From assembly GCA_002269645.1 (NCBI GenBank), contig NIVC01000723.1, forward strand, positions 248,001-312,000: a stretch of DNA of 64,000 nucleotides, read 5' to 3'. The position numbers were made by a program, and so were the translations under genes. The notes beneath the pieces are model-generated. The model saw only the letters and a list, made by a program, of their open reading frames with translations, ran no database searches and was not told where the DNA came from. The stretch comes from Macrostomum lignano. Lineage: Eukaryota. Positions 12,001 through 64,000 of the stretch are shown here, one piece after another (position 1 is the stretch's first letter; the number at the start of each line of letters is the position of its first letter).

Positions 12001-12275
12001 TCCTGAATGGAGGTCGCCTGAATTGACGTTTGAACGCAGAATCTTTCCCGACTTGTCATTCCGCACGTGTTCGAAGCGGCTGGCTCTCTACCGTAAGCAA
12101 GATTCCAGAATTTTGTCAAGCACATTTTCGGCTTTCGATTTTTATAACACTCGGAGACATTTTCGTTGCTCCCGATCGGATCGCCAGGGGTACCGGAGGA
12201 TTGGGCTCTGGCTGTGCTAATCAAGAAAATTACTAGAATAATTACAGCTAACAAATTTTGGCTAAGTTGCCACAT
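40..12275 (-). CDS. LAMC1: Laminin gamma chain, multi-exon, 3' end beyond the left edge of the window
   Basis: Inferred exons (minus): 12275-11831, 11376-11066, 10717-10107, 8223-7848, 7517-7145, 6096-5860, 4847-4519, 4040-3579, 3350-3054, 2949-2677, 2016-1669, 1606-1322, 1138-875, 298-40. Phases are consistent where checked. Product has a signal peptide, LN domain (NVNITIDFG, YIRLLFHSPRP, DWVLASDILISLDRLNTHGD), LE1-4, LE5 split by an L4 domain, LE6-11, CPECPDCY and then coiled coil, which is the gamma-chain layout. Symbol indicates family, not proven orthology. Confidence 0.92.
545..792. repeat. Intronic minisatellite, ~22-23 bp unit (GATCACAGACACGGATGTAACT)
   Basis: Tandem copies visible inside laminin intron 299-874. 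Confidence 0.9.
2066..2618. repeat. Intronic minisatellite, ~60 bp unit
   Basis: Repeated GAAGGACTGACCATAAAACTGATAGACCCACCTCACGCCGCACGGTTAGGAAAGAGGGG in laminin intron 2017-2676. Confidence 0.9.
4068..4460. repeat. Intronic minisatellite, 28 bp unit
   Basis: (GATGAGGAGAATGGGGATCAATACAGGT)n in laminin intron 4041-4518. Confidence 0.92.
5005..5852. repeat. Intronic minisatellite, 33 bp unit
   Basis: (CCCACTTCCCAATCAAAAGATCCCATCTCTAGT)n in laminin intron 4848-5859. Source of the SPTSQSKDPIS and GLEMGSFDWEV ORFs. Confidence 0.93.
6140..7010. repeat. Intronic CT-rich minisatellite, ~21 bp unit
   Basis: (CTCTCTGATCTCTCTGTCTGT)n in laminin intron 6097-7144. Confidence 0.92.
7583..7831 (+). repeat. 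Intronic minisatellite, 14 bp unit ACTCCAACACTGTC
   Basis: Tandem copies in laminin intron 7518-7847. Confidence 0.9.
8231..8550 (-). repeat. Same 14 bp minisatellite in inverted orientation (GACAGTGTTGGAGT)n
   Basis: Reverse complement of the 7583-7831 array, on the other side of exon 7848-8223. Confidence 0.9.
10770..10985. repeat. Intronic minisatellite, 27 bp unit
   Basis: (CTGAGGTCCTGAAGTATCTGAGGGTAG)n in laminin intron 10718-11065. A similar partial unit occurs near 12555-12575. Confidence 0.88.
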
Positions 12276-14735: not shown

Positions 14736-15064
14736 CATGGCTCTTGCAAATGAAAGTTTTCAGGCAGGCTTAGAACCATCTAATTCAGATTTCACCTGTG
14801 GCATATGGACCGGTGTGATGATAACCAGATGGTTAATAAAGTCCAGTTAATTGTGAGAAAAGTGGCAAGATCTGTAGCACAACGCAATCCATATACTAAA
14901 AATGGTCTGTCGGTAGGTAGGTATGTGTGTGATCGATTCTAGAAAAAATGGCTCAACTGATTTTCTTCAAACTTGGATTATGATTAGTTTTTTACGTTTT
15001 TTTCGGTTTACTAATAGTAGTAGCGAACATTTTGCCAAAATTGACGGACATCTCGTACCTGCAG

Positions 15065-18000: not shown

Positions 18001-19718
18001 AAAATTTCAATGCAATTTTAAGTTTTTTAATCAATAAAGCCACTATATCTGTCCATACGTACTTCCGAATTTACGCCTAATTCGAGGTTGAGTGGTAAAA
18101 TTACCTTGTTGAGAATGATTAACTCTCGTTGACGCTCCTTCCAACAACACACAGGCCGAAGAACCCGCCTCCGTCGTACCCGAAGCCTCCTAGGGAGTCG
18201 TCAACCCCGAGAGCTGAAATTGACGAAAACTTCGACACCTGGGACTTCTTCATCGAGGAGGGCGACAAGAAGAAGCCAATCGGCAGCGGCGGCTTCGGCA
18301 AAGTCTACAAAGCCTTCACCGATCGGCACCAGTTCGTAGCCGTGAAGGTCATCAAACCCATGGGCAATATGGACAGCGCGAAGCGGCGCCAGATCTTCCT
18401 GCAGGAGAAGCAGGCCATGGATTTGCTGCGCCATGTCCGCCACGAGAACATTGTTCGCTTCCTCAAAGCCGAGGAGAAGGATGGAAAGTTTTACATCTTT
18501 TCCGAGCTACTTTCTGGCTACACCATCCAGGAGATTATGTTTAAACAGAAGAAGCCAATTGACGAAAGCGGCATTAAGAGGTTCACTATTCAGGTTAGTA
18601 AATCAGTAGCAATTGCGCTCACAATAAGCTCAAATACCTTTCCGTTGTCTCTTTCTAGGCTCTAATTAAATGAGCGTAGAATCTTTACTGCGTCTCGGGA
18701 CTGATACCGAGATGTCTCGGGACTGATACCGAGATGTTTCGGGACTGATACGGAGATGTTTCGGGACTGATACCGAGATGTCTCGGGACTGATACCGAGA
18801 TGTCTCGGAACTGATACCGAGATGTCTCGGGACTGATACCGAGCTGTCTCGGGACTGATACCGAGAGGTCTCGGGACTGATACCGAGATGTCTCGGAACT
18901 GATACCGAGATGTCTCGGAACTGATACCGAAATATCTCGGGACTGATACCGAGCTGTCTCGGGACTGATACCGAGAGGTCTCGGGACTGATACCGAGATG
19001 TCTCGGAACTGATACCGAGATGTCTCGGAACTGATACCGAAATATCTCGGGACCGATACCGAGATGTCTCGTTGGTTCTATAGTCGACTGATATGACCAG
19101 TTATTGACTGATCTTACTGAGATTGAATAAGACAGAAACGTGGGACTTTCGATGATTCTAATACGCTGTGGAAATCTACTCAGAAGTTGCAAGTAAAGTT
19201 AACCTTCCTTTGACAGACAGGTGAATTATAACCATGCGTGTAAATTGCAGGTGTGCCAAGCCTTGAGCCACCTGCACAGCCTCCCGAAGCCGATCATTCA
19301 CCGTGACATCAAGTCGTCAAACATCATGCTGACGAACCCGGGCATCGTCAAGCTGATTGACTTCGGTTTCGCTCGCGAGATTAGCAACTCGCAGATGATG
19401 ATGACTCGGACCCAGTGCGGCACCCCGTTCTTCATGGCGCCGGAGATACTCGCTCCGATGAACGAAGGCGTCGCCTACACGTCCAAGACGGACGTCTGGG
19501 CTCTTGGCTGCACAGTCTACGAGATGGCCACAATGGAGCCGCCAAACTCGGAGATTCAGGCGCTATTTTTTCTGGGAATCGTCGTGTCCAGCAAGCCGAT
19601 GCCAAAGATTCCGGGGGCGTCCGCTGAACTGCAGGATTTCTACCAGCTGTGCGTGGAACGCGAGCCCAGCAACCGTCCAGAGGCGTCTCGGCTGCTGCAG
19701 CACAAGTTTTTGAAGTGA
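15065..19718 (+). CDS. Ankyrin-repeat protein with C-terminal STE/MAP3K-like Ser/Thr kinase (one spliced gene, 5' end uncertain)
   Basis: Exons 15065-15564 (CAG|GTGACG), 16429-17597 (CA|GTAAGT), 18155-18593 (CAG|GTTAGT) and 19251-19718 join in frame (phases 0, 2, 0). Many ankyrin motifs (RPLHLAAHQGH, TPLMVA, TPLLAAC, TVAHYAA). Kinase motifs intact: GSGGFGKVY, VAVK, HRDIKSSN, DFG, GTPFFMAPE, DVWALGC. First in-frame ATG after the acceptor is at 15109. Confidence 0.82.
15625..16045. repeat. Intronic minisatellite, 77 bp unit
   Basis: TGTATGGGGG recurs at 15711, 15788 and 15865 (77 bp period) inside intron 15565-16428. Confidence 0.9.
17628..17950. mobile_element. Foldback/MITE-like element with ~95 bp terminal inverted repeats
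   Basis: CCAAGGACTACTCAAGTAGAAGGACGGGAAA...AGAAAATGTTTAGGAGGCTGGTTTTC at 17628 is mirrored by GAAAACCAGCCTCCTAAACATTTTCT...TTTCCCGTCCTTCTACTTGAGTAGTCCTTGG ending at 17950. No clear TSD. Confidence 0.75.
18693..19070. repeat. Intronic minisatellite, 22 bp unit GGGACTGATACCGAGATGTCTC
   Basis: Tandem copies inside the kinase-domain intron 18594-19250. Confidence 0.92.
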
Positions 19719-22158: not shown

Positions 22159-25345
<3,187 letters not shown>

Positions 25346-30075: not shown

Positions 30076-31679
30076 ACGATCCTAAAAACCCAGTGTAAAA
30101 CCTGACACTGAAATCCCGACTGTTCTGGACTCTTCAGGAAAGACAAATTACTAGTCAGAAGTTTTCAAAGGTATAGCTATTAGCGGTAAAAAATTCACTA
30201 GAAGTTATATACAGTAGATGCAGATCGCACAGTAATTCTGATTGAAGTGCAGTACTTGACTCTAGATTTTCCGATTGTTTGTGAGGCGAACTGATACAGT
30301 GTGCGTGTGTACAAATATACGACTTAAGGAAACGGCCACTGATTTACTCGGAACATTTTCTCTCACTAGTGCTAATTGTGTTTCATATTAAATTAAATCT
30401 ACGCGTTTTAATTTGTTTATACCCACTGATTATTCCATAAATTCAAACTGACAACTGACGACAATAAAAATTTCATTTTTTGATCAATTCAATTGATGTA
30501 CTACAGATGACTTGAATTACAGTGGTAATTTCAATTGAAGTTGCTGTTTTAATTGCGCATGTAAAACACTTTACTCTTGATAAATTGCTGTTTAAAATTG
30601 TGAACTGAAATTTCTGTGGCTGCGTTATAACTGAAAATGAGAATTAAATCAAGGATCGATGGCACACTATTACACTATGACAGTTGCTGGCTAGTGGCTA
30701 GGTCTAGCCTAGAGCCTAGCCCTAGAGACAGTCAATTTTGTTGAACTTCTGAATGTGACGTTCTATGTTAAATTTGATTTGGTATAGGCCTAGGCCTATG
30801 CCGCCTATTGTTAGTATTTAGCTTTAGGCATTTGATTATTTGATATTTAATTATAAATTAAAAGTGCACATAACATTGTAATTCAATTAGGCCTCTGTTT
30901 GGAACTGACCCAGGAACAAATTTTACTATTGCATTGGTATTGATAAATGCATAATTAGGCCTATATATAGTATGCATTATATGATTGGGCTGTGAGCATT
31001 ATTATTTCACTATAAAAAAGTATTTATTTGCAGTAGTTTTAGACTTGATTTGCATTTAGACTTATATAAACAGTTCAAATATCATTAAGACTTTTGCCAA
31101 GGTTTTTAAGCTAACTTATTTCTAGATTAGATTATCATGTTTTATACAAAGTGTTTTTTAGTAAATATGGAAAAGTAAATATAATCTATCTAGTGTGCTA
31201 GGACCTAGAACAATGAAACTCAAGTAGGGATAGACCTAGACCAATATTTTTTTATTAGCTAAGCTGGGCCTATATTGGCTAGGTCTATATACCAAGCAAC
31301 AATAAATGAATAGGCCTAATACAATATTAGAAAACAGACCTTGCATAGTTATTACTAGTCTATAGTCCAAAAGTATAGGCTTTTTATAGTTTAATTTTTC
31401 GCCATGGCCCTTTAGCCCCCTTGGATATATACATAATATACCTATTTCAAAAAATATAAACTATAATACAAATTAGATAATAAGACATCATTTAGCTCTA
31501 ATAAAATAGTCATAGCTATTCCTGCCATTTATCCAAGATAATATTTAAATTGTTTTTTACTTTATGGTTTTTTATAGTTAATTTGTATTTTTAGTCAAAA
31601 TTAAGTCATATGGCCAATATAAATCAGGGGGTTGCATATATATAAGGGCTGCTTAATAAGTTTGTGGAAAATCCTATTT

Positions 31680-33869: not shown

Positions 33870-34180
33870 AATTAATAGTAATCAATAATTGATCATATCT
33901 GGCGCCCAATGGGTAGATGTGCAATTGACAGTTCAGCCGCAGCTATTGTGTGGTGTATCTGAAGGCTGCATATGGCTATTCAGTCCAAGGACTGGGGGTC
34001 GCCACACACACCCTCAATTACCCCATCGAATGCTGGCACCCATTTTACAGCTGGGTGAACTGAAGCAATGCAGAGTTAAGTGTCTTGCTCAAGGAAACAA
34101 ATTGTTCCAATGGGATTGGGAATCGAACCCCCGACCTTCAAGTTGTGAGTTCGACGCTCTGACCACTAGGCTGCAACGCC
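33870..34180 (-). mobile_element. tRNA-derived CORE-like SINE, copy 2 (more diverged)
   Basis: Same head and body as copies 1 and 3 (GGGGGTTCGATTCCC B-box; CACCCAGCTGTAAAATGGGTGCCAGC on minus). Confidence 0.82.
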
Positions 34181-34415
34181 TTAATTAGAGTTATAAAGAA
34201 AAATGTCTTAGATTTTTACTTCAAATTAAATTTTCTAAAAACGTTTATATTTATTTTAATCATACATTTTATATGTAGGTGTTTAGCTGTGCTAAGCAAG
34301 TCAGTGCCCAACTAAAAATCAATATATTGAATTAGATGCTAATCAAAAGCTGCAATTGTGAATTGCATGCAAATTAATTTTCAATTTCCAACTCAATCAT
34401 CAGCAACAGTCAGTC

Positions 34416-37400
34416 ATGGACTCCACATCGCGCACCCCATCTGAGCGGTCTCGCCTATACAAAAACAAAGACAAAGATGGCGAAGAGTTGCGCCGTCGAC
34501 GCAACGACGCAAGCGTTGAGCTGCGCAAAGCGTCCAAAACTGATCAGATGATGAAGCGGCGAAATATCGACCTGGCCGCCGGGGATGACGACGAGGACGT
34601 GGCCCTTGGCGACGGGCAGCAGCAGGCCAGCGGCAAGGTGCTCAGCCCGCTACGCGACGCCAATAACGTCTTGGCTAATGCCAGCATTGACGACATCTGC
34701 AAGGCTATGAAGTCCGGATCTCCTGCCGATCAGTTTGCCGCCATCCAGGCCTGCCGACGGGCTCTGTCTAAGGAGCGGCACCCGCCTATTGATGAGTTCG
34801 TTAATAGGGGCGTGCTGCCCGAGCTGGTTGTGGCCCTGACCAAGCCGGCTAATCACCAGGTGCAGATTGGCCTGTGTTATTGTCATGCGTTAATAGTTTC
34901 AGCCAGTCAGTGTGGCTCATTGTATAGGCGCTGTCGTTAGGGATGTTCATATCTCCGTAAAGCAGCTTGTTTTACAACTCCGACATTTCTTACCTCCGAC
35001 ACTTCATATCTCCGGCACTTCATAGTTCCGACTCTTCATATCTCCGACACTTTATATCTCCGAAACTTCATATCTCCGACACTTCATATCTCCGGCACTT
35101 CATAGTTCCGACTCTTCATATTTCTGACTCTTCGTATTTCCGACACTTCATATTTCCGACACTTCATATCTCCGACACTTCATATTTCCGACAATTCATA
35201 TCTCCGACACTTCATCTCACTGACGCTTCATATTTCCGACACTTCATATCTCCGACACTTCATCTCACTGACACTTCATCTCACTGACGCTTCATATCTC
35301 CGACACTTCATCTCACTGACACTTCATCGCACTGACGCTTCATATTTCCGACACTTCATATCTCTGACACTTCATCGCACTGACACTTCATCGCACTGAC
35401 ACTTCATATCTCTGACACTTCATCGCACTGACACTTCATATCTCTGACACTTCATCGCACTGACACTTCATCGCACTGACACTTCATATCTCTGACACTT
35501 CATCGCACTGATACTTCCTCGCACTGACACTTCATCGCACTGACACTTCATCTCACTTGACGCTTCATATTTCCGACACTTCATATCTCCGACACTTCAC
35601 AACTCCGACACTGAATGTGTGTTGTGTCCCTGCACCCTCGGATGAGTGAATGTGTATTGTGTCCCACAAAGTCTACAGTTTCTTGCATCGGTACTATATT
35701 TAAACGCATCAAGCATTGGACTGTGCAGTGCCTATTATTAAGCCATTAATTCGCCATCACAGGTGGTATTCGAAGCGGCCTGGGCCCTCACCAACATAGC
35801 CAGCGGTGAGGCTCAGCACACTCGCGCCGTTGTTAACGCCGGCGCCCTGCAGCCCCTGATTGAACTGTTGAACTCCGAGCATCTCAACGTGGCCGAGCAG
35901 GCCGTCTGGGCTCTCGGCAACATCGCTGGTGATGGCTCCGAGCTGCGCGACCGCGCCATCAAAGCTGGAATTGTCCAGCCGCTGCTCCGGCTGCTCCAGC
36001 GGGTGTCACGCGATTCCGCCATCGCCGCTAGCAGCAGCAGCTCGGGCTCGGATAATAGCGTCTCGTTGCTAGGCAACTGCGCTTGGCTAGTTAGCAACCT
36101 GTGCCGCAATAAGAATCCGCCACCGCCAGCTAGCGCCGTGCTGGAACTCCTGCCGGCTATGGCCGCCCTGCTGCAGGCGCCGCACAAGGAGGTGGTGCAG
36201 GACACCTGCTGGGCTCTGAGCTACGTTACCGACGCCGTTAATGATCTTATTGGACAGGTAATTCAAAGGCAACAGTGTTTAACAGAATGGATAATGAAGT
36301 GTCCAGAAAAATTAGTTATACGTACTAATGCTGAAATGTGCCAAAATCACATGCTGATGTACGAGTATGTAATAGAATCCCATGTTTGATGTACATAGGA
36401 GAATCCCATGTTTGATGTACATAGGAGAATCCCATGTTTGATGTACATTGGAGAATCCCATGTTTGATGTACATTGGAGAATCCCATGTTTGATGTACAT
36501 TGGAGTATCCCATGTTTGATGTACATTGGAGAATCTCATGATGTTGTACATTGGAGAATCCCATGCTGATTTATATTATAGAGAATCTCATGCTGATGTA
36601 CATTGAAGAATCCCGTACTGATGTAAATTGGAGAATCTCATGTTGATGTACATTGAAGAATCCCATGCTGATGTACATTCGAGAATCCCATGCTGATGTA
36701 TTTTGAAGAATCTCATGCTGATGTATTTTGAAGAATTCCATGCTGATGTACATTATAGAGAATCTCATGCTGATGTATTTTGAAGAATCTCATTGGTGTG
36801 TACATTATAGAAATGTACATGCGAAAACTCATTTGCTAACTCTGTACCAACAAAAGCCAACTAATGTACACGGGGAAATCCCACTCAATGGCATAGCAGA
36901 TATCTTAACTGTTGACATTAGAGAAACCAATCTTCAATGGCTTTAATATTCCGTCTAATTGCGCCTCACTCAAGGTAATTGCTAGCGGTGTCCTACCCAC
37001 CCTGGTGGCCCTGCTGGACCACACGGAGGCCGCCATTGTCACGCCAGCCCTGCGCACCATCGGCAATATTGTGACTGGCACAGACCAGCAGACTGACACG
37101 GCTCTGGCTGCCGGATTTTTGCCCAAGTGCCACCGCCTGCTGCTGCACAATAAACCGAACATTGTTAAGGAGGCCGCCTGGGCTCTGTCCAATGTTTTGG
37201 CCGGATCGCAGCCGCAGATTCAGCAGGTTTGCACTTTTTGGATGATTGGGTGTTTGGTAGATGTAGATCAGGTCCATCGATGGTCCGCCATGCCCTCCTT
37301 ACCCTGTCTTTCAATGGGCTGCCTTACCCTCCTCCCCATGATCTAATAGGCTGTCTTCCCTCCCCAAGATCTAATAAACTGTCTTACCCTCCCCAAGATC

Positions 37401-38305
37401 TAATAGACTGTCTTACCCTCCTCCCCCAAGATCTTCCAATGGGCTGTCTTACCCTCCTCCCCCAAGATCTTCCAATGGGCTGTCTTACCCTCCTCCCCTA
37501 AGACCTTTCAATGGGCTGCCTTACCCTCCTCCCCCAAGACCTTTCAATGGACTGTCTTACCCTCCTCCGCCAAAATCCTTTGATGGGCTGCCTTACTATT
37601 CCTCTGTTCAAGGTCCTCAATCAACCCCTAGCCCTGGACTGCCTTACCCTTTTCCCCAATGTCCTTAAACAGTCCACCTTACGAATTTTCCTTGCCATCG
37701 CGTACCTAAATATTGAAATTCAGAAAATTCCTTGTTGATACACATAACTTAAAATTTTCTGTATTCCGATATGTATCGAAACAAGCATTAAAAAACTAAA
37801 AATCCTCCAGGTGATCGACAACAACCTGATCCCGCCTCTAATTGGCATAGTTATTAATGGCGATTTCAAAGCCAAGAAAGAGGCCACCTGGGCCCTCACT
37901 AACATGGTTACTGGCGGCGACGAGGCCCAGATCAGCTACCTGGCCAATCAGAATGTTGTGCCAGCCCTGTGCGAGATGCTGTCGGTGCAGGAGGCCAAGA
38001 TTGTCTGCATCGTGATGGAGTCGCTTACCGCCCTGCTTAGTCTGGCCAAAAAGTACAACCAGGCCGACGATATGTGCATCGCTATCGAGGGCTGCGGTGG
38101 ATTAGACAAACTTGAAGCCCTGCAGGAGCACGAGAATCCTCGAGTGTACGAGATGTCACTCCAAATGATCGAGGAGTTCTTTGGCAACGACGAGGACGGC
38201 GGCGGCAACGAGTCGGGCGCCGCTGCCGCCGGTGACGGCGCCGGCCAGATGATGTTCTCAGCCCCGACTGACGGCAACGCTCCCGCTGGTGGATTCAAAT
38301 TCTGA
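34416..38305 (+). CDS. KPNA2: Importin subunit alpha (alpha2-like)
   Basis: Exons 34416-34859, 35763-36257, 36975-37226, 37811-38305, all phase 0, giving about 561 aa. IBB domain ([30 protein letters not shown]) and ARM motifs [49 protein letters not shown]. Subtype call is tentative. Confidence 0.93.
34975..35610. repeat. Intronic minisatellite, 16 bp unit CTTCATATCTCCGACA
   Basis: Importin intron 1. Confidence 0.9.
36365..36800. repeat. Intronic minisatellite, 26 bp unit GAGAATCCCATGTTTGATGTACATTG
   Basis: Importin intron 2. Confidence 0.9.
37290..37670. repeat. Intronic minisatellite, 36 bp unit
   Basis: GGGCTGTCTTACCCTCCTCCCCCAAGATCTTCCAAT repeats in importin intron 3. Confidence 0.88.
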
Positions 38306-41145: not shown

Positions 41146-43181
41146 AAATTTGGTCAGAGAGGATAGTGAATACAGTTTTATGAGATGAAGACTACTAGAC
41201 TATATGCTTTTAATATATTCCATTATACTCCATATACCCCAATATTCCATATACTCCATATACTCCATTTTTTAATATAATCCATATACCCCATATACTC
41301 TATATACTCCATATACTTCATTTTTTAATATAACCTAGGCTTATTGGTTATTGGCCCAATAGCCCAACCCTCACCAGTTCCACAACATCAAGCCAAACTA
41401 TATTGTACAATATTTATACTGTAACTGCATGTTTGTACTGCAGCTTGTATCCCTATAGGAAAAGTTGTAAAACCGCGGATGGTGTCTGGTGCACTTTTGA
41501 AATTTTTCTAAAGTGCAGCGTGCGCACAGGCGCATCGCCTGCATGTGCACTGCCTTTTCTTACTGGCTGCTGCTTTAGCAAATACATCTACATGGAAATG
41601 GGTATAATACCTCTGTTGAAAGGGCTTATACACTCATACATGCACAACTGCTGGCCGACCTGGCCGATCTGGCCACCGTAAATTGTGGTGGACCAGGGGT
41701 AAGTCGCAAAAATGCCACCCCAAAGAATACGGACGTAGTACTAATTAGATGCCGAGGCATTTAGGCCTGATAAGACAGTCATAGTTACTCCTGCCGTTAT
41801 ATAAGCGTTAATTTTGCTTTAGGGTTTCTTTCACAGGTAAGTCGCATTTTTGGTCAAAAAGTAAGTCACATGGCCAGTGTAAATCAGGGGGGTTGCGCAT
41901 GTATGTATACACTTGTAATTTATTAAGCTTAGAGATGTTCCGAAAATTCAATTTCAATTTTCCAAAATTAGAAATTTTTTAGAGCAAATTTCAATTTAAA
42001 AAAAAATTGGAATTGAAAATTTTGGTAGTGTCTAAAAAGTTGCTAATGTGCAAGCGCTTAATGCTACTAATAGTAATAATAATAGTTTTTGTAAATAAAT
42101 TTGTCAATAATAATTTCGAGTTTTACCACTCAAGAATAGTATTCACATATTATTTGTTTTAATCTTCTAACGTTTAATAATAATATTCATGTAAAAATTG
42201 TATGTATTTTTAAACCGAAAACTAATTTTAGCCCTATTTGTTTTAATACTGCATATATCAAAATTAATATTGATCAAGTCTCAAAATAGTATAAATAGAC
42301 GGGATCTGGCCAGAGAGCCACCAACTGGCTGATTGCTTGTTCCTAAATTAGTCTCAAGTCTCGCTACTTGTTGAGCCTTAAACTGTTACTTAGAAATCTT
42401 TTCAAGACTTAGTAAATTTTTCGATTCAAAGAGTGAAGTGGAAGTTAATCATATCACAGATACTACTGATACTCAGAATACCAAGGAGATTGAAGTAAAA
42501 CAAAGTAGATCTCGGGAATACATATACAGTATTGAGAAGGCCGTGACCCTCTAATCTCGGGAACGCCTAAACGACTGGACTAGACGATCAGACACTTAAA
42601 TAACTACAAAAGAATTACAAGGAAGATCATTCTGAGAAATACATTCCAGGCCAATAGTAGACCACTCGGCATATACTAAGAACGCTACCAATACATATAC
42701 TAAGAACGCTACCAATAGAAGTAGATACTTAGACTAATCCTTAGACATATACCTAGACTTATTCTTAGACTTATACTTAGACTGATACTTAAAGACTTAT
42801 ACTCAGACCTATTCTAAGAAACATTTCTCAGATTATTCTAATATTGATAAACTCATAATTTATTAATCGAATAATCTTGGTGGCAGCTACCAACCTAAGA
42901 AGAACACTTAAGAGATTAGTAAATTAGCCCTGTGACAGCTTTTGGTGACAGTGTGAAATTATTATTAGAGACAGAAGTAACCCCTAGGACAACTTTGGTG
43001 GCAGCGGTGGGATTCTCAGTGTATAGGAATCACCACTGTTACAACTTGGTGGCAGCGGTGGGATTAGAGAAACGGCCAGAATTTCAGAATCAAACAGATT
43101 AGAGAAACGGCGCGATTTAGATCAGAGAAACGGCAAAACATTAGAAGACTAGAGAAATAGCAGAACCTGACAAGAAGAGAG

Positions 43182-43775
43182 ATGGCTAATGCCAACGACG
43201 CAATTGCTAGGTTAGCTGAGGAGCTGTCAAAGAAGCTAGGATTAGGAATGGAGAAGCAAGTAGAGATTGAGAAGTACACACCTGACAAAAATATCAGACA
43301 GTGGATCAATGCATTCGAGCAGCAATGCAGGATGCAAGGACTGAATGGAGAAAAACGAAAAGTAGCTCTTTTCGCCAATCTGGATATCCCAGAAGAATTG
43401 AAGCGGAGGATGAGCCATAGACAAGACCAGCAGCACTATCAAGACATTAGGCGACAAGTTATTGAGCAGTTCGAAAGGAAGCAGCAGAAGCAGGAGGAGA
43501 ATGGAGTCCAAGCCCTAGTCGAGTGCTTGATGACCCTAACGGCCATTCTGACAAATGTGAACTTAGGGCTAAACCCAAAGCAGCAGCAGCAGCAGTACAA
43601 ATATCAGATGACGCCAAAGCCGCGCCCGCCGCACAGATTCAGTGGCGCCAGACCAGAACCAAAGCCCGGCCACTGCTTTTTCTGTGGTCAGCCAGGATCA
43701 ATCAGGCCACAGGCAGGTCATAAATGCAGAGTAAACTTGGGAGAAGCCAGACAGCGAGCTCAGGAGAATGGATAA
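43182..43775 (+). CDS. gag: Gag-like protein of the LTR element
   Basis: First ORF after the PBS. Gag-type N-terminus (YTPDKNIRQWINAFEQQC) and an incomplete zinc knuckle CFFCGQPG. Confidence 0.7.
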   Translation: MANANDAIARLAEELSKKLGLGMEKQVEIEKYTPDKNIRQWINAFEQQCRMQGLNGEKRKVALFANLDIPEELKRRMSHRQDQQHYQDIRRQVIEQFERKQQKQEENGVQALVECLMTLTAILTNVNLGLNPKQQQQQYKYQMTPKPRPPHRFSGARPEPKPGHCFFCGQPGSIRPQAGHKCRVNLGEARQRAQENG

Positions 43776-45180
43776 TGGTAATTTTCTGTAAGCACGATTC
43801 GATTAAGCTAAGAAAATTGTACATAATATTCATAAAAAACATAAAAATTTATAAAAAGCTTCGAAAAAGAAAATAAAAATGTTAAACATAGAACCGTACA
43901 ATATACATAATGCACATAATTGCCTAATGGAGCCCCAAAAGGGCCGTTTTAGCAAAATACCACTTATGTAAATCGCTAGCTCATTAAAATGTTTGACATA
44001 CATGATTATTATAGTACTGTATTATGTAAATACGTCACTATTGCACAAAATTGCTTGAAGTAAATAGCTCAGGAAGGTTCTCTTAACAAAATACTGTATA
44101 GAAGCCTCAGAAGGGCCGTTTTACCGAAGTTTTCGAGTAGACTCTTAGCATATATGAAATAACTAGAATTAGCACTGTGTAACTGTGTAAATATTCTCTA
44201 TGCAAATAGCACACTAAATTACGCAAAATTAAGTCTCCAGAAGAGCCATAAAGAATTAGGTGACCCCGAAAAGGGCCGTTTTGACAAAGAAAATTCAGAA
44301 AATCAACAAAAACAGGTTTAATTCGGTTAGTTAGGCTGCTCAGAAAGTAAGATAGGAAGTCTACAATAAGAGTCGGAGTAGTGAGAAGCTCTGTGAAGAA
44401 GAAATAATTAAAGAATTAATGTAATAAACTCTGACAATAGGCAGTAGAGAGAAGAGAATACAGGACGCTGAGAAGTTGAATTGAAGAAGAAGACGAGAAT
44501 TTGAGAGGAATCGAGAATTAGAGAAGAAAAGGTGTGCTAAAAGCAAGAGGTAGACTAAAGACTTTTTGTCGCCATCGAGTGACGTAGTCTAGCCGCACCC
44601 TCAAGCGCTAATAGACACCAAGTAGAAGAGAATCAAGAGTAGTCGAGAAGCGAATTTGAAGAAGTGAATTCAAGAGAAGAATTCGAAGAAAAATCAAGAA
44701 GAAGTACATAAGCAAAGTCAAAGAAGTGAACCAGAAGAATTGAGAGTTTGATAAAGCGAGGAGAAAAATTGTGAGAAAAAGCCAAGAAAAATCCGATCAG
44801 CTATCTCATGGTGTCCCTCTTTAGATCAGATATCATTGCTGTCTAAATGGATGCGATAGTCTGTGAAGAACAAAAATAAGAGAGATGAGAAAAAAAGAAG
44901 AATTTGTCAGAGAAAAATTTAATTAAGAAAGAAGGAAAACTTTTCGATCCCGCTTAGAAAGGCTCGGCACAGCCATTTTAAAGCCCTTTCTCAAGGATCC
45001 TGAAAATTGGAAAAGAGAAATATGAGAGATGGAATACTGGAAGGAGTGCTCACTGTTCTTTTGGAGGAAGCAAGGTAGTCCAATGACAGCCAATTTTAGC
45101 CCATTCCTGAGGACATAGCAATTTCGGAAAGTAAAGGCTTGAAACCAAACTAATCCAATAATTACATAACTTACTAACTA

Positions 45181-45411
45181 GAGAATGAGATAGAACCAAC
45201 CGAAGAAGAATTTGAGCATGAAGATGAGTCAACAGATAGTGAGAAGACTGAGCCAGCCGAAACAGATGACGCATTAGAATTAGATAGGAGAGAAAGAAAT
45301 GAAGACGAAAGGATTGAGCATAGGTCGCATTATAATTTGAGACCAAGAAGTGAGAGAATTGTCACCTCAGGATTCGCCCCCCGCAGGCGATACACCCATT
45401 ATCTGAAATGA
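45181..45411 (+). pseudogene. Relic of pol/integrase C-terminal tail
   Basis: Acidic stretch ending HYNLRPRSER..YTHYLK*, a motif commonly seen at the end of LTR-element pol. Stop codon just upstream. Confidence 0.45.
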
Positions 45412-45819
45412 TCGAATTTGTATCATACCAAGTATTAAATTGTAAATAGAATTTGCTTAAAATCAGAAAAATTGCTCTGTATATAGAAATCTGTTGTAAA
45501 TAATAAAAATTGACAAAATATAAAAAGTTTAAAAATATAAAAACACAAAAACATTGCGCATTACTAGTAGTAGAAATGAGAGAATTGTGTGAAGAAATCC
45601 GAAGTCAATAAATAATCCTAGCAACGCTTAGCAACGGTGCGCTGCTCTGAACCAATGAGCGAGCCCGTTCGAAATTTGCTAAACCCCCTCTCGAGCGAAC
45701 ACGAAGATGCGGTCCAGTTTTTCGAATACATTATGAAAACACGAGCCAACCCAAGGAATCATATTAGTTCTCACTGTAAGCTTAAAGATTACAAACCATC
45801 AAGTCTGACAAGCCCAGCC

Positions 45820-46704
45820 ATGGAAGACGAGAATATCGACGATTTCCTGAAGGCTCTGCTCGACGAAGAGGTGCCGATCTCAACGCCGCCGCCGCAGGAA
45901 GCTTCAGCGGCCGCAGCTTCGTCAGCACCAACAACAGCCTCGTCAGCCGCCTCGTCGTCGGCAACCTCATCAGCGCCAACATCAGCAGCCCCGCCAGCAG
46001 CCCCCGAGGACGAAGCACCGCTCCGACAGCCGACTCGGCCCCGCGCTCTTGGCAGTTCGAACAAGCGGCCTCGAGAACCGTCGCCTGTCGCTTCAAATGC
46101 TCTGCAGTTACGCGTCGATGAGCCCCCGCATCAAAAGCGCGCCGCTGTCATCAGGGCTCAAGCAGCAGCACCCGTACAGCAGTACATGCCGCAGAACTGC
46201 CGAGCAGCCGCCGCAAGCCAGGAGAGGCGCACCGTGCAGCTGCCGACACCATCGACGGTACCGAAGCGAACGGCTCGTGGTCCACGACTGAGTGCAGCAC
46301 CGGCAGCCCCGGCACCAGCTCCGGCAGGATCGACAGTTGCCCAAGAACATCTCGAAAACACTCTGCGAGAGGCGATGCACGCTGTTCTGCGTCAGCATGG
46401 CGAGCAACTCGAGAAAATCGCCCACGCAATCCGCCAGTATCTCATGCGGATTGGCCGTCTTCGATTAGATCAGGCCTTGCCGCAGAGGTCTCAGGTTTGG
46501 ACAGCGATCAGGGCTCTGCGAGACCGTCTCGAGCAACGGCAGGCTGTCACGGTACTGCAGTACATCGCCCTCGGCCTCCGCCGTGCCATGCCTCCAAGTG
46601 ACGAGACTGTCCAACATCAGCTGCTCGCAGTTGAAATGCGCTGGCTGTTTGCCCAACTCGGCTGGCCATACTACCGAGAACTGCCTGACCCATGCAATTT
46701 TTAA
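45820..46704 (+). CDS. Orphan 294-aa ORF carried by the LTR element
   Basis: ATG at 45820 in good context (GCCATGG). GC-rich and uninterrupted. Acidic N-terminus, Ala/Pro/Ser-rich linker, predicted helical C-terminal domain. No family recognised. Confidence 0.7.
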   Translation: MEDENIDDFLKALLDEEVPISTPPPQEASAAAASSAPTTASSAASSSATSSAPTSAAPPAAPEDEAPLRQPTRPRALGSSNKRPREPSPVASNALQLRVDEPPHQKRAAVIRAQAAAPVQQYMPQNCRAAAASQERRTVQLPTPSTVPKRTARGPRLSAAPAAPAPAPAGSTVAQEHLENTLREAMHAVLRQHGEQLEKIAHAIRQYLMRIGRLRLDQALPQRSQVWTAIRALRDRLEQRQAVTVLQYIALGLRRAMPPSDETVQHQLLAVEMRWLFAQLGWPYYRELPDPCNF

Positions 46705-49700
46705 GTATGCTTTCTTTTTAACTTTTTCTACTTTTACTACCTGTTTGCTATGCAGCTTTTAGTTTTATATCTTGCTTGTTTGCATTAGTCTAATAATTTT
46801 TCTGATAGCTTCATTTTTATATAGTTTTACATTATGTAAATATTCATTGCCTACATATGCTATATTCTCAATGTTTGCCTTATAACTAAGCAGCCTTTGT
46901 TTGCCTGTATGCTTGTGTTTTTCTAATTGTGCTCTATTAATTGCATTTTTGACTATTTTTCTAAAAAGTTTGTCTGTTTTATTTTTATCTTGTGCTACAT
47001 TTATAGTTTTATATTGCATACGCTAATTTCTTGTATTTGTTTCTATGCTGTTGTGTTCTACATGCTAAATAAATTTTCACTCAAATATTCAATATTTTTA
47101 TTCAAATTTATTTTTTAAGGGTGAGCAGGTTGTGCAAGCGCTTAATGCTACTAATAGTAATAATAATAGTTTTTGTAAATAAATTTGTCAATAATAATTT
47201 CGAGTTTTACCACTCAAGAATAGTATTCACATATTATTTGTTTTAATCTTCTAACGTTTAATAATAATATTCATGTAAAAATTGTATGTATTTTTAAACC
47301 GAAAACTAATTTTAGCCCTATTTGTTTTAATACTGCATATATCAAAATTAATATTGATCAAGTCTCAAAATAGTATAAATAGACGGGATCTGGCCAGAGA
47401 GCCACCAACTGGCTGATTGCTTGTTCCTAAATTAGTCTCAAGTCTCGCTACTTGTTGAGCCTTAAACTGTTACTTAGAAATCTTTTCAAGACTTAGTAAA
47501 TTTTTCGATTCAAAGAGTGAAGTGGAAGTTAATCATATCACAGATACTACTGATACTCAGAATACCAAGGAGATTGAAGTAAAACAAAGTAGATCTCGGG
47601 AATACATATACAGTATTGAGAAGGCCGTGACCCTCTAATCTCGGGAACGCCTAAACGACTGGACTAGACGATCAGACACTTAAATAACTACAAAAGAATT
47701 ACAAGGAAGATCATTCTGAGAAATACATTCCAGGCCAATAGTAGACCACTCGGCATATACTAAGAACGCTACCAATACATATACTAAGAACGCTACCAAT
47801 AGAAGTAGATACTTAGACTAATCCTTAGACATATACCTAGACTTATTCTTAGACTTATACTTAGACTGATACTTAAAGACTTATACTCAGACCTATTCTA
47901 AGAAACATTTCTCAGATTATTCTAATATTGATAAACTCATAATTTATTAATCGAATAATCTTGGTGGCAGCTACCAACCTAAGAAGAACACTTAAGAGAT
48001 TAGTAAATTAGCCCTGTGACAGCTTTTGGTGACAGTGTGAAATTATTATTAGAGACAGAAGTAACCCCTAGGACAACTTTGGTGGCAGCGGTGGGATTCT
48101 CAGTGTATAGGAATCACCACTGTTACACTAAAAATAAACTACTTTCTACTACATATACATGTATTACTTTTTGCTTAAGCAGTAAATTGAAAGTAAAAAA
48201 GTAAGTGTTGATCATACTAGGCCTAAACTTTGTTTTTCTGAATTATGATTTTGGAAAATTTTAATTTTGATTTTAGAAAGTTAGCAAATTTTGATTTCGA
48301 CAAAACTGCAGATCTTTCGGAACATCTCTAATAATCCTAAAGCGCGGTAAAATAGTTTGACAAGCGTGCGTCTGCAGGTTTTTAACATTTATTCTAATAG
48401 TGACTTGTATCTTAACATTTTAAAATTTTTTACTGTTGAAAATTTGTTCGATCAACTCTCGATAAAAAAACTGCACCAGATTGTTACTGTAAAAGTTGGT
48501 GAAAAACAAAAAAGTAAAATGTGGTACAACTGGCAAGTTGAATTCTCGCAAAGTAATTATTGGACAATAAAGTTTAATAAATTTACTTATTAAAATATGT
48601 ATCACGTAAGTTAAAGTTAAAGTGCATCCAATGGCACCCAGTTGATGAAAATTCCACATTTCTCATTGGTAGTTGATGAAGATTCAATTTTTCCTATTGG
48701 CAGTTGACAAACATTCCAACTACCAATTAATTTTTGTCAACTCTCAGTTAACAAAAAAAAGTTGACAGAAATACTAGGATCCATATAGAATTTTATAAAT
48801 GGGATTGGGAGAGCACTATATCTAGGCAATATATAAATGCCCTTGCCCTTAGCTCAAAAGGCTATATAACTTATACTTAAACTAAATAGATAGAAGTAGA
48901 TATCAATATAACAAAAAAAATTACTTTAGCAAACAAAATAAAGCTTATTTTCTTAAATTAAGCTTGTGCAGTTGTAGTTTAGCCATACCAAACCCTTAAA
49001 AAACATTAGCATGCTTTTTGGACTAAAAAAATAAAAAATCTTAAGATGCAATTTAGCAAATTAGGTTCAATAGACATATTTATGAAGACTGAATCCTAAA
49101 TTGTCAATACTACCAAGGTGAGATCTCAATATTATAGGATAAGGAACATTGATGATTTTTCTCAATATACAGCCAGCTAAGTATAATTGGGCAACTATTA
49201 TCATTTCATTCATTCCATTTAAATCAATAATATGCTACCCAATAAAAAAGATCAATGTTTTTTTGGCAATTTTTCTATAGCTCAAATAAGCCAAGTAGGC
49301 TCCAATTGAGTATATTGCTCTAGTCAATGCTAGAAGCCCAAAAAATATAATACTAGGACTTAAATCCCTATCTAGGACTTAAATCCCTATCTAGTCCTTA
49401 TAGTAAAAAGTTGTAAAACCATGGACAATGTCTGGTGCACTTTTAAAATTTTTCTGAAGTGTAGTGCCTGCATAGGCACGCAGCGCCTACACGCATGCTA
49501 CCCTTTCCTGCTGGGTGCTGCTCTAGCTAATACCTAATACCTTTGTGGAAAGGGCCTATACACTCGTAATTTCTCGTATAATGCTTAGATGTTCCAAAAT
49601 TTGGAATTTTTAAGTGAATTTTAAATTTTGAAAAAAATTGGAAGTCAAAATTTTGGAAGTTTGTAAAAGAGTAGCTAAAAATAAACTAATTTATGCTATA

Positions 49701-51883
49701 TATACATGTATTTTGTTTTGCATAGGCAGTAAATCTAGAGTAAAAAAGTTAGTTTTGGTCATACTAAACTTTGTTTTCCTGAATTTTGATTTTGAAAAAT
49801 TTTAATTATGATTTTGGAAAGTTAGCAAATTTTGAATTCAACAGAAAATAATCCTAAAGTGTGGTAAAATAATTTGACTCTTTTTCTAAAGTGCGCATCC
49901 CTGAGTTTTCAACATTTATTCCAATAGGGGTACTTGTAATAATATCACACTGCTTATAGTGTTTGTCTATCTATTTGTAATTAAACTTAGTACAAGTTGT
50001 TAGTCCAACTGTTGGTCCCAGACTCCAAGGTGTGTAGGAGACATGCACTCCATTTTTATACATACCCATTTGAAAATGTGTTCTTTGACAAGGTTAAAAC
50101 AAAACAATTTAATTTGAATAGCAAAATCTAATGACAATAATGTTAAATTTCAATGAACACTACAGCTTTCTTTAAACTTTAGCATTCACAAAACTGGTTA
50201 TTTCCTAACTGACTACTTGCTTAATTGGCTGTTACCAAATTCTAACAGCCAATTTCCAAGTGCTTTAACTTTGATTATTAAGTCTAAAAGACCATTTTTT
50301 ATAACTTTAGGTTGTCTATTAGGTTCTAGTTTGTTAATGATTTATAACTAATTGCATATATGTTTCAGTATAGGCATCTTTCATAAAAAGTATTATTGAC
50401 CACTAACCAGCCAGACAAAATGTAAGGCATGCAATAGTTTGGCAAATAGCAAGCAAGAGGCAATAATAGAAAGTGGCCTCTAGCCAGGCAATAACTATTT
50501 ATTTATAGACAACAGCATTAGCAAACAATGTACATTAGCAATAATATTTAATTCTAAGGTTAAAAATGTGGAAATAGAAAAAGATAGTTTAAAATAAATT
50601 AAAAATAAACCAAAAAATGTAGACAAATAACTTAATAAGCAACATTATAAATTGAGCCAGTTGCACCATGAGACAGCTCACTAAAACAGAGCTGAGACAC
50701 TATTAGCAAAATTTTTAGCAGCCTCAGCTGCCTAATAAAACTAAGAGAAGTAACACTGCATAGCCCCACTCCTCTTAGTCACTAATGTGCATGATGTCAG
50801 ACACTAGGAGGCCAAGCACGGATAACTAGGTGGCTCCTCTATATAGACTATGTATATGCATGGAATAAAGTTTTTATTGAAGGCCTCTTAGTTAGCAAGT
50901 GTGAGCTGCCACTTCTATCAGTGTAAGATCAGAATGGTAATTCCATTAACTGCAATCAAGTGCAGATGTGTCACTTGACTGCACTCACCAGACACAAGGC
51001 TAGCCCCCATGTCAATCTTAGCAGCAGTACCATGTGTTTTGAACTAGACTTGTACTTTGAGTCTTTATACTTTGTGTTTGTTAGGTCGGCTTATATTTTT
51101 GCTTTGACTCAATTAAATATCATTTATTTTGTTAAGTTGATCTATTTGTTTTTTATTTTGAAGTTTATCATACAAGTGTATTATTAAATAATTTATTAGC
51201 TATATATAAATGCCCAACACTTGTCTGACCTGTCCAAACCAGACAGGTGAAATGGCAAATAGCAGATGGAAAATGGAAAAAAGTGTAAAAGGAAAAATTG
51301 CAGGAAGAAAAAAAGGAGAAGAGAAAATAAAAAGAAAGGAAGGAGACAAGAGAGAGGGGAAAGAGGAGAGAGAAAGAGAAAAAAAGAGAAAGGCAAGAAA
51401 AGTCATATACAAAGTGAAAATTAAGTTGCAATCGAGAGGAACTAAGTTGCAAATCTAGACAAATCTAAGTTGCACCAGGTGGGTGAAATTTCGAGGTTGG
51501 GCATGTATGAGGCTATGTAAGGCATATATCCTAGAAGGCTTAGTAGGTAAATGAAAGGCATTTAATACACTTAGAAATATATGTTTAGTTTCTTATATAT
51601 AAAAAACTAATAGTCAAAAGTAATTTTAATAATCCTGAGAGCTCCTGAGATATTAAAAGAAAAGGGGGTGTATCAGTATAAGCCATAAGTTAAAATGCTG
51701 CAGGTATATGTGATAGTTGTGTTCCAAGTCAATGGCAGCCTAAACTCAAAGCTAATATAGTGGTACCATTGAAGAGGCAAGAGTCCTACATGGAGAGGCA
51801 AACTGGTTCAAGTACCAATAAAAAACCTGCCTCCCCCAAGATGTCCCAGAGCCACGAGTTGAAAATGTTAAGTCACTGGAAGC

Positions 51884-52240
51884 CTGGTGGTCATAGTCTG
51901 CCACACCGCTACCTACCTACCGCCAGCCTAGTGGGTTGCAGCCTAGTGGTTAGAGCGTCGGACCTACAACTGGAAGGTCGGGGGTTCGATTCTTGACCCA
52001 CTCGGAACAATTTGTGTCCTTGAGCAAGACACTTAACTCTGCATTGCTTCAGTTCACCCAGCTGTAAAATGGGTGCCAGCATTAGCTGGGGTAATTGAGG
52101 GTGTGTGTGGCGACCCCTCAGTCCTTGGACTGAACAGCCGTACGCAGCCTTCAGATGCGCCGCGCAATAGCTGCGGCTGAGCTGTCGGTTGCACATACCC
52201 ATTGGGGCGCCAGGTGTAATCAATTATTATTATTATATTA
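51884..52240 (+). mobile_element. tRNA-derived CORE-like SINE, copy 3, with 16-bp TSD
   Basis: Head TAGTGGTTAGAGCG...GGTTCGATTC, body GTGTCCTTGAGCAAGACACTTAAC...CTTCAGTTCACCCAGCTGTAAAATGGG, (ATT)n tail. Flanked by TTAAGTCACTGGAAGC at 51868-51883 and 52241-52256. Confidence 0.9.
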
Positions 52241-52410: not shown

Positions 52411-54850
52411 ATGTCTCAATTAACAGCTTCATCATCAGCTGCCGGCTTCGACATTGAAGTCGCAGCCGATGCAGGCGCAGAAATTCCAGTTCGCCTACTG
52501 GATGACCTGTGCAGCCGGTTCATTGTTAACCTGCCCAGTCACTACTTCACTAATGCTGTGAAACTGTTCTACGAGATTGAGCACGCCTATTGGTTCTATT
52601 TGGACAATCTGGTTGCTGAGCACAGTCTGAAGCCGATGAATATGTATCGATTCTCTGCTCTGGTGTTCCAGCACTGCAGCAAATTGGCCAGCTACACTTA
52701 CACCTGGCAGGCTCATTATGACGAATGGCGCAAGACCAAAGCTGAGACGCCAACCTGCGGCGCCGCCTTAATGAACTCAGATTTGGATCAGGTGCGATTT
52801 TTTTGTTTAGAAATATCATGGACTGTATTTTAGTAAATATCGCCTTTGAATTATATCCCGTTAGAAATGCCTTGAAAAAATCACTCCTGATGTCTGCCTC
52901 ATTAGAAATCGCCCCTGAACTCTCCACCTCATTAGAAATCGCCCCTTAACTCCCTGTCTCATTAGAAATCGCCCTTGAATTTTTTGCCTCATTAGAAATC
53001 GCCCCTGAACTCTCCACCTCATTAGAAATCGCCCCTGAACTCTCCACCTCATTAAAAATCGCCCCTGAACTCTTTGCCTCTTTAGAAATCGCCCTTGAAC
53101 TCTTTGTCTCATTAGAAATCGCCTCTGAACTCTCCACCTCATTAGAAATCGCCCTTGAACTCTTTGTCTCATTAGAAATCGCCTCTGAACTCTCCACCTC
53201 ATTAGAAATCGCCCTTGAACTCTTTGCCTCATTAGAAATCGCCTCTGAACTCTCCACCTCATTAGAAATCGCCCTTGAATTCTTTGCCTCATTAGAAATC
53301 GCCCTTGAATTCTTTGCCTCATTAGAAATCGCCCCCTGAACTCTTTGCCTCTTTAGAAATCGCCCTTGAACTCTTTGCCTCATTATAAATCGCCTCTGAA
53401 CTCTCCACCTCATTATAAATCGCCCTTGAACTCTTTGCCTCATTAGAAATCGCCTCTGAACTCTCCACCTCATTATAAATCGCCCTTGAACTCTTTGCCT
53501 CATTAGAAATCGCCTCTGAACTCTCCACCTCATTAGAAATCGCCCTTGAATTCTTTGCCTCATTAGAAATCGCCTTTGAACTCTTTGTCTCATTAGAAAT
53601 CGCCCTGAACTCTCCACATCTAGAAATCGCCCCTGAACTCCCTGTCTCATTAGAAATCGCACCAACTGCAATCTGAGCCGCACCCCTCTCACCCCCAGGT
53701 GGTGCTTGTCAAAGGCTTCACGCCCGGCTGGATGTTCCCGCGCGGCAAAATCAACGATCGCGAGGCTAAAGCAAAATTCTATCCGCAGGCCGCTGCCAGA
53801 GAAGTTCTGGAGGAGACCGGGTTTGACATTGGGCCGATACTGGACCCCGAGCTCTACATTGAACGGGTGGTGGGCTCGGCTCTGTCTAGGCTCTACTTAG
53901 TACCCGACGTGCCAATGGATTTCAAATTCAAACCGGAAACTCGAAACGAAATCGAAGCGATTCTGTGGTTCCGGCTGTCCGACCTGCCAACCAGCCGATC
54001 GGACGAGGACTGCGCCAGGCGGATCGCTTTAAAGTCGAAAGATTTCTTTCTAGTGATACCGTTTGTGTCTCAGCTGCGCCGTTGGGCCGCGCTGGTCCGC
54101 CAGGGCGGCTTAAGCCGGGTTGCGGCTCTGAGGAAGTCTGAGAATTCGTCTGTGCAGCAGCAGCAGCATCCGCCTCCGCTGATGCTTCAAGCTTCTGCAG
54201 CTGCCCAGCAACATCAGAAGCGATCTCAACAGCAGCGCAAGAATTCTAGATCTTCAGCTGCCGCTGCTGGCTCTGGCGATGCCGCGGCCGCTCCGTTGCC
54301 TGTCAATAATACTACTACTACAACTACTACTAACAGTAGTAATAATAATAATAATAAAGAAAATGGCGGGGGAGGCAGGCGCGGTGGAAAACAGAAACGT
54401 GGTGGTGGCGGTGGCGGCGGAGGTCGCGGCCGAACGCCTTCAACTTCCGCCGCTGCTGTTGCTGCAGATTCAGCCGCATCATCCAACGCTGCGGCAGCCA
54501 CAGCCGCATCATCCAACGCTGCGGCAGCCACAGCCGCATCTCTGGGCCTGTCCCATCCAGTTGTCAAGTCTCCGTCGGGCATTCTAACCGTCCCTGATGC
54601 CGATTCTATGAGTTTTCAAGAGTTGAACACGCTGGCTTTAGAGGCCGCTAGACTGGGACTGCCATTGCAAATCTATCAGGATTATGAGCCCAGTCCCAAT
54701 CGAAGCAATGGTCGAAGTAATGGGCAGCAGCCGCAACAACAGCAGCAGCAGCAACAGCCACAGCAGCAAGCTGTGTCGCGTTTCAGTTCGTCTGCCTGGT
54801 CGAATTTCCGACTGGATATGGGCGCCCTGCATCGCACGCTGCCGACTTAG
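52411..54850 (+). CDS. DCP2: mRNA-decapping enzyme 2 (Nudix)
   Basis: Exons 52411-52791 and 53699-54850 (phase 0). Box A LDDLCSRFIVNLP and EIEHAYWFYLD, then TCGAALMN, GWMFPRGK, AREVLEETGFDI, and a low-complexity C-terminal tail. Confidence 0.93.
52880..53662. repeat. Intronic minisatellite, 30 bp unit CTCATTAGAAATCGCCCCTGAACTCTCCAC
   Basis: Fills most of the Dcp2 intron. Confidence 0.92.
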
Positions 54851-59470: not shown

Positions 59471-59827
59471 CAGAGAAGAGTCGGGAAGATTCTATGAGAA
59501 CAGGTCCAAAGATTCCCTAAAAAATGCCCTGAGCAATCCAAGAGTATTTACCTGAAGTTCCTATGAAAATGTCCTAATGATAGCCCTGTAGATTTCCTGT
59601 CTCCTCTATGCACAAGTTTTGCATAGCCATAGGAAGGTTCAATTATTGAACTTTGCCTAAAAATCCATTTAATACATGCTCGTATTCTTATAAATATTTA
59701 AATATTGCACTGTTTCCGTTCATGTCAATTATCAAGCTCAGTTTAGCTTATTTTCGTTGCGGATATCGTGTGCGCACACTATTTGGCATTCAGCTCAGCA
59801 GGAACACGAAAACACTCCTGACAGACC

Positions 59828-59926
59828 ATGTGGGTGGAGGCCAGGCGCCAGGAGAAACAAATTCGAACCTCTATGGTTGATTATAGAAAACGGGCCCAGC
59901 GTCGGAGAGAATATTATCAGCGAATT
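59828..59926 (+). CDS. CLASRP: First coding exon of CLK4-associating serine/arginine-rich protein (SFRS16); gene continues past the window
   Basis: MWVEARRQEKQIRTSMVDYRKRAQRRREYYQRI followed by a GTGAGT donor. Matches the conserved CLASRP start as recalled (MWHEARKHERKLRGMMVDYKKRAERRREYYEKI). Missed by the ORF track. Confidence 0.85.
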
Positions 59927-59947
59927 GTGAGTGCCTGTCTGATACTG

Positions 59948-64000
<4,053 letters not shown>

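Follow-up and report, generated by a model that had tools for sequence, protein, structure and literature searches.

A pol-less, very recently inserted LTR element of Macrostomum lignano carries a conserved 3' gene that may encode a nuclear regulator

The window analyzed here is a stretch of 64,000 nt of the Macrostomum lignano genome (assembly GCA_002269645.1, contig NIVC01000723.1, positions 248,001 to 312,000, forward strand). It contains a long terminal repeat (LTR) element of 6,081 bp at 42047-48127 (+), which was inserted very recently. The element keeps a gag-like open reading frame (ORF), has no detectable pol, and carries an intact 294-aa ORF with 61.6% GC (45820-46704, here the 3' ORF) ahead of its 3' LTR, as the initial annotation of this DNA had described. 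The explanation that we prefer, with a probability of about 40%, is that the product of the 3' ORF is a nuclear regulator, a transactivator or an anti-silencing factor, which turns on the transcription of the element itself.

A phmmer search of 1.84 billion representatives with the 3' ORF yielded 5 proteins: the one encoded in the window and four relatives with 38-60% identity. One relative is a Logan protein (P0003; its longer form, P0007, is of full length). Two others are short models from M. lignano, and the fourth is part of a chimeric model from this species, in which it lies between a non-LTR reverse transcriptase (RT)/RNase H remnant and an LRR protein. All named relatives are from M. 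lignano, and by sequence the family is apparently restricted to Macrostomum and uncharacterized. The ORF had been called an orphan; the term holds outside Macrostomum only. Since the N terminus is common with P0007, the start of the 3' ORF was placed at 45820 (ATG with G at -3 and +4) and not at the annotated 45655.

The encoded protein has an acidic amphipathic helix at about residues 1 to 20, a low-complexity linker, basic patches at residues 66 to 110, and a five-helix domain at residues 173 to 294. When it was compared with P0007, 1 of 2,000 shuffles aligned as well as the acidic N-terminal helix, and none of 2,000 aligned as well as the basic region or the ungapped C-terminal domain. The linker was unconserved (239 of 2,000 shuffles). 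Conservation in such islands indicates a long-term constraint on the protein, as judged from the alignments. The C-terminal domain also aligned without gaps to P0003 (51/114 identities), and the pairwise identity among five distinct lineages ranged from 27/103 to 50/86. Four of the 12 invariant columns among the 6 aligned sequences are arginines. The survival of the ORF had initially been read as a sign of selection within the element. This reading was not sustained, because in so young a copy an intact ORF is no sign of selection; moreover, the segment with the 3' ORF (the cassette) is invariant, and sister copies seem to spread without it. The evidence for selection comes from the diverged relatives, which may be placed in retroelements or be host genes.

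The C-terminal part, which the initial annotation had singled out for structure prediction, was modeled with AlphaFold2. The lone sequence gave a pLDDT of 47, and the six sequences together gave a pLDDT of 83 and a pTM of 0.79, with five helices and no strand in the predicted fold. No significant match to the 3' ORF was obtained in Pfam, PHROG, PDB sequence, Atlas, Foldseek, VIA-align, or viral (BFVD) searches. The enzymatic ORF3 types (GDSL esterase and DEDDy exonuclease) were not found either, with no Pfam match in the full ORF or in the 6 alignment members. The protein is not env-like, as had been proposed, because it has no transmembrane (TM) segment (maximum 19-residue hydropathy, 0.67); its acidic N terminus also speaks against a signal peptide, and the small, all-helical model against a glycoprotein fold. 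On the grounds of sequence and model, the 3' ORF encodes a real, conserved, non-env protein.

The features of the element, all on the + strand, are as follows.

42043..42046, +, 5' target-site duplication (TSD) CTAA, from flank comparison and the empty site
42047..43043, +, 5' LTR of 997 bp, TG..CA, with a TATA-like box at 42290 and short tandem repeats at 42670-42812
42878..43014, +, three extra units in the LTR 3' end that resemble the primer-binding site (PBS), at 42878, 42943, and 42996-43014 (full 19-nt copy); they recur in the 3' LTR
43047..43065, +, tRNA-Leu PBS
43182..43775, +, short gag-like ORF of 197 aa with an atypical knuckle, C-X2-C-X11-H-X-C
43776..45177, +, purine-rich interior without a recognizable pol domain, near-identical in sister copies
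45178..45411, +, acidic open frame of 77 codons with YNLRPR, a possible pol tail by this motif, unsupported by databases
45617..45675, +, candidate internal promoter with a pair of presumed RFX-type half sites at 45619 and 45629 and a presumed CCAAT box of NF-Y type at 45652; motifs chosen post hoc
45820..46704, +, accessory ORF of 294 aa (the 3' ORF)
46705..47116, +, 3' untranslated stretch rich in T (216 of the 426 nt before the LTR), with AATAAA at 47068
47117..47129, +, candidate polypurine tract (PPT), imperfect, 11/13 purines
47131..48127, +, 3' LTR, identical to the 5' LTR
48128..48131, +, 3' TSD CTAA

The recent insertion is evident from the LTRs, which showed 0/997 differences when aligned, with exact identity ending at both borders. 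The LTR divergence is below 0.3% (95% bound from zero differences). The CTAA duplication on both sides of the element was likewise as first described. The flanks belong to one host repeat that was interrupted by the insertion, and a paralogue of this repeat at 49590-49760 crosses the insertion point with a single CTAA. Contigs from three of four runs pass directly from 42042 to 48128, and 4 letters at the junction fit either side; the flank being a high-copy repeat, these contigs may stem from paralogues instead of the empty allele. The host repeat is dispersed and very high-copy, with a summed contig depth of 10^4-10^5 in run X7, and its stretches in the window lie at 41450-42046, 48128-48410, 49395-49938, and 31489-31643. 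The PBS, 3 nt past the 5' LTR, is of the tRNA-Leu type, as the initial annotation had it, when judged against tRNA genes of other organisms. The candidate PPT lies 1 nt ahead of the 3' LTR. No canonical heat-shock element was found in the LTR. Position 80 is a C in both LTRs (42126 and 47210), and the contigs covering it read T at full depth; the C is either a variant private to this element, carried into both LTRs, or a product of the assembly. The element is likely of the Ty3/Gypsy type; it lacks the RT by which a clade would be assigned.

The gag-like ORF had no significant Pfam or PDB sequence match. In the ESM Atlas, the clusters nearest to it (0.93) bear Retrotrans_gag, Ty3_capsid, or zf-CCHC and have 129-152 of 256 features in common with it, which fits its assignment as gag; the ORF is about 100 aa shorter than these clusters. 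The sole relative of the protein is an M. lignano protein with 94% identity. Because this sister matches in two frames, the sister gag copy is frameshifted near 43350-43400. Gag is thus present in the element at the sequence level.

Six-frame translation of 43776-45819, the 2-kb stretch that separates gag from the 3' ORF, gave 0 Pfam families, and protease (PR), RT, RNase H, and integrase, as expected of the pol of an autonomous element, were not found. The C-terminal pol scrap that had been reported (45178-45411) was not confirmed by this search; the label goes back to YNLRPR, which we take to be the integrase-tail motif of Gypsy elements and which has no database support. A contig of 1,421 nt with 12 differences covers 43938-45357 in another run, also without pol. 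Because of this contig, the pol-less interior is considered common to sister sequences and not a collapse. Together with the empty site, it also indicates that the element is no assembly collapse of an autonomous one, and the earlier view of a young, non-autonomous, gag-bearing element is supported. No single contig among those listed spans the whole element. Three spaced GGGCCGTTTT core copies occur in the non-coding interior at 43941, 44113, and 44273 (172 and 160 nt apart) and are candidate sites for binding or packaging. Between the PBS and gag, at 43066-43160, there are four short AGAGAAAC/T-led repeats.

Each LTR contains the three extra PBS-like units (42878-43014 in the 5' LTR and 47962-48098 in the 3' LTR), one of them a full 19-nt copy. 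All 7 matches of a 10-nt PBS pattern in the window lie inside the element, versus 0.19 expected. The last 16 nt of the LTR (43028-43065 region) are able to base-pair with the true PBS (-16.3 kcal/mol, 1/200 shuffles), and the last bases can instead pair with an internal PBS copy (-18.1 kcal/mol, 6/200 shuffles). In these folding models, the two alternative hairpins of LTR end and PBS could control primer access. A PBS-like copy of 9-11 nt was found 55-122 nt upstream in 7 of 15 metagenome loci with the same full tRNA-Leu PBS outside tRNAs (0-3/500 shuffles). Two of the seven (L058, L062, L091, L106, L137, L162, and L163) are nearly identical, which leaves 6 distinct loci, and a CA end before the PBS, present in 12 of the 15, is the sole sign that these loci are LTR elements. 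These copies may serve as a second, conserved site for tRNA, as a decoy for tRNA fragments, or as a switch in pairing. No description of PBS-like sites inside the LTR was found in the literature searched. They recur in unrelated tRNA-Leu-primed loci and may represent an overlooked cis element.

The cassette was followed in contigs of four runs (X1, X7, X8, and X16), in which contig depth is no measure of copy number. Among the contigs listed, those over the 3' ORF begin at 45693 or 45694 in all four runs, and the cassette showed 0 differences in the long contigs listed for each run. Because of this invariance, dN/dS across copies is not computable. Sister sequences thus seem to branch near 45724 (branch zone, 45693-45724), just past a block of promoter-like motifs. 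In run X1, which is RNA only by guess, one contig (45693-47505, reaching into the 3' LTR with two LTR differences) has a depth of 34 versus 7-9 upstream, and the 3' ORF may have its own transcript, as this depth faintly suggests. The promoter-like motifs lie 150-200 nt upstream of the 3' ORF. RFX-type and NF-Y-type motifs occurred in 8 and 22 of 5,000 shuffles, respectively, and both together in 0, for motifs that were chosen post hoc; the sequences at 45619 and 45629 are presumably RFX-type half sites, and that at 45652 presumably an NF-Y-type CCAAT box.

The preference for a nuclear regulator comes from the layout of the protein. An acidic amphipathic helix, basic patches resembling a nuclear localization signal (NLS), and a folded domain form the usual layout of transcription activators, and the 3' ORF is read as a transactivator because its acidic helix, its NLS-like patches, and a domain with 4 arginines among 12 invariant residues match this layout. 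In the proposed mechanism, a full-length RNA would start in the 5' LTR and be packaged, primed by tRNA-Leu, reverse-transcribed, and integrated by the enzymes of a helper, a step in which we have high confidence. The helper would be a related tRNA-Leu-primed Ty3/Gypsy element acting in trans. The 3' gene would probably be read from its own internal promoter, with transcription ending near or in the 3' LTR, and it is rather likely that its family is retroelement-borne and not a host family. We see an even chance for the final step, in which the basic patches would import the protein into the nucleus, the helical domain with conserved arginines would bind element DNA or chromatin, and the acidic helix would recruit activators, so that transcription of the element and its helper would rise or silencing be relieved.

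Several observations weigh against this explanation. The C-terminal domain has a net charge of only +3, and no homologue or fold match of the 3' ORF in the searches above points to any function. The labels of activation helix, NLS, and promoter are candidate readings of patterns, and the helper is a likely but postulated partner. Three of the four relatives are fragments or lie inside a chimeric gene model, and the relatives may be host genes. In contrast to run X1, the contigs of the other runs had a lower depth at the cassette than in the internal region upstream of it (128 versus 337-408 in X7, 42-58 versus 101-135 in X8, and 7.6-8.6 versus 13.3 in X16). This hints that only a minority of sister copies carry the exact cassette and that many spread without it.

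A competing possibility is that the 3' ORF belongs to a host gene family specific to Macrostomum, recently captured with or without its promoter and useless to the element as a passenger. The GC content steps sharply at the 3' ORF, from 0.38 before it to 0.55-0.68 inside and 0.23-0.28 after it; the cassette is invariant in long contigs, has the lower depth, and shares the branch point at 45693-45724; two relatives are annotated as host genes; and the conservation could stem from a host function. We nevertheless consider capture somewhat unlikely. No orthologue outside M. lignano was named among the 1.84 billion representatives, and the relatives are mostly fragments, one of them beside the non-LTR RT/RNase H remnant, as expected of mobile-element debris. 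In addition, the GC content at third codon positions (GC3) of the 3' ORF (0.58) is below that of three of four host exons (0.72-0.77) and near that of gag (0.54) and the fourth exon (0.54). If the 3' ORF is a captured passenger only, the locus still clearly exemplifies the recent transduction of a gene by a non-autonomous LTR element.

A function on RNA or particles, such as Rev/CERV-like export of unspliced genomic RNA, RNA chaperoning, or capsid cargo, appears unlikely. The acidic amphipathic N-terminal helix, kept across about 40% identity, would suit a transcription activator better, and no Pfam or fold match to an RNA-binding family was obtained, although the invariant arginines and basic patches suit RNA binding equally well and the pairing of the LTR end with the PBS could be opened by a chaperone. 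CERV of the Caenorhabditis elegans element Cer1 is such a nuclear factor (PMC10309623). It is very improbable that the 3' ORF is selfish cargo that acts on the host (a toxin-antidote or germline-biasing factor) with the element merely as its vehicle: the family is lineage-restricted and fast-evolving and has a candidate promoter of its own, but there is no second linked ORF as an antidote, and no toxin-like domain or fold was found in the searches above. The idea of a chance GC-rich open frame or a misassembled autonomous element is largely refuted and retains hardly any probability. Among 2,000 dinucleotide shuffles, 22 gave a fully open frame of this length, so that the open frame is modest evidence on its own, no single listed contig covers the element, and polishing can homogenize two LTRs; against this stand the conserved relatives with a confident predicted fold, the empty site with its single CTAA, and the sister contig without pol. 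The C at position 80 of both LTRs, where contigs read T, also argues that the LTRs were not collapsed onto the family majority.

Elsewhere in the window, we assigned genes by eye, which we take to be a laminin-like gene with introns filled with minisatellites at 800-12300 (-), an ankyrin-repeat plus kinase gene at 14900-19700, importin-alpha at 34360-38305, and a Dcp2-like exon at 53650-54850. A 14-bp minisatellite forms inverted arrays at 7583-8560, with arms of up to 232 nt, about 91% complementarity, and about 410 nt between them. A dispersed repeat of about 200 nt occurs at 23654-23852, 33995-34177, and 51935-52195 with 92-95% identity and in opposite orientations. A GATA-type microsatellite of 2.4 kb is located at 59800-62170 and has a GC skew of 1.0.

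Both pol-less elements that keep gag and accessory ORFs at the 3' end have been described before; the present element combines the two and adds an uncharacterized protein family. TR-GAG elements are non-autonomous plant LTR retrotransposons that keep gag alone, and transposition has been shown for AT5TE33540 (PMC8704663). The present element resembles them in having LTRs, a PBS, a candidate PPT, and a gag ORF without pol and in its likely need for a helper in trans. It differs in its animal host, its atypical knuckle, and the length of gag (197 aa versus 562 aa in the example cited there), and it departs from their single-ORF structure by its second, longer ORF of 294 aa before the 3' LTR.

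Known cases of an additional ORF downstream of pol and ahead of the 3' LTR are maize Grande (gene23), RIRE2, and Retand; gene23 is nuclear and has its own promoter (review PMC7264820). The 3' ORF is like these plant ORFs in its position, in the lack of similarity to known proteins, and in its proposed nuclear regulatory role. Unlike them, it is a sense ORF for a soluble protein in a pol-less animal element; the plant ORFs in that account mostly lie antisense in autonomous elements, and those in sense orientation are env-like and have a TM segment. A sequence relation to the plant ORFs was not detected. In animals, the ORF3s of bdelloid elements encode a GDSL esterase and a DEDDy exonuclease (PMC5408684), and the env gene of the Oikopleura Tor element uses an internal promoter (PMC4402516). 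With these and CERV of Cer1, the 3' ORF shares its place as a third gene on an animal element of Ty3/Gypsy type, which is the likely type of the present one. It differs from them in its all-helical predicted domain, with no enzyme signature and no Pfam or fold match, and those elements keep pol.

The M. lignano Ty3/Mdg4 families, with 78 Mag, 9 CsRN1, 40 Gmr1/Osvaldo, and 2 Mdg3/micropia families (PMC12801592), share the host and are a likely helper pool. As far as available, the main text of that survey has 0 occurrences of "non-autonomous," "ORF," or "PBS." The present element would not enter the survey, because it was RT-seeded and the element has no RT; any survey of this genome that starts from RT would overlook elements of this kind. 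A 4-bp TSD and TGT..ACA ends are shared with the Saci2-like elements of tapeworms (PMC12471100). No description of the element or of its 3' ORF protein was found in the literature searched, with repeat libraries outside the scope. To our knowledge, only a few animal transposons are known to encode a regulator of their own silencing or transcription, CERV being one such regulator.

Functionally, the 3' ORF most likely works like Tas of foamy viruses, a transactivator with an internal promoter (PMC13220597), or the VANC anti-silencing factors of MuDR transposons (PMC13547354), as an element-encoded nuclear factor that would raise the expression of its own element. The likeness is by analogy only, with no sequence or fold similarity detected: CERV, VANC, Tas, and Grande gene23 gave no match in the Pfam, PDB, or BFVD results for the 3' ORF, which are library searches and not direct pairwise comparisons. 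A wider version, in which a satellite family without pol has an internal-promoter slot for interchangeable cargo genes of a new protein family with the unmatched five-helix domain and supplies its transactivator or anti-silencing factor in trans to the helper, as an animal LTR counterpart of VANC and Tas, is distinctly unlikely. The regulator question itself is directly testable, as a conserved, foldable protein family is present here on a very recent insertion in a species with RNAi and transgenesis.

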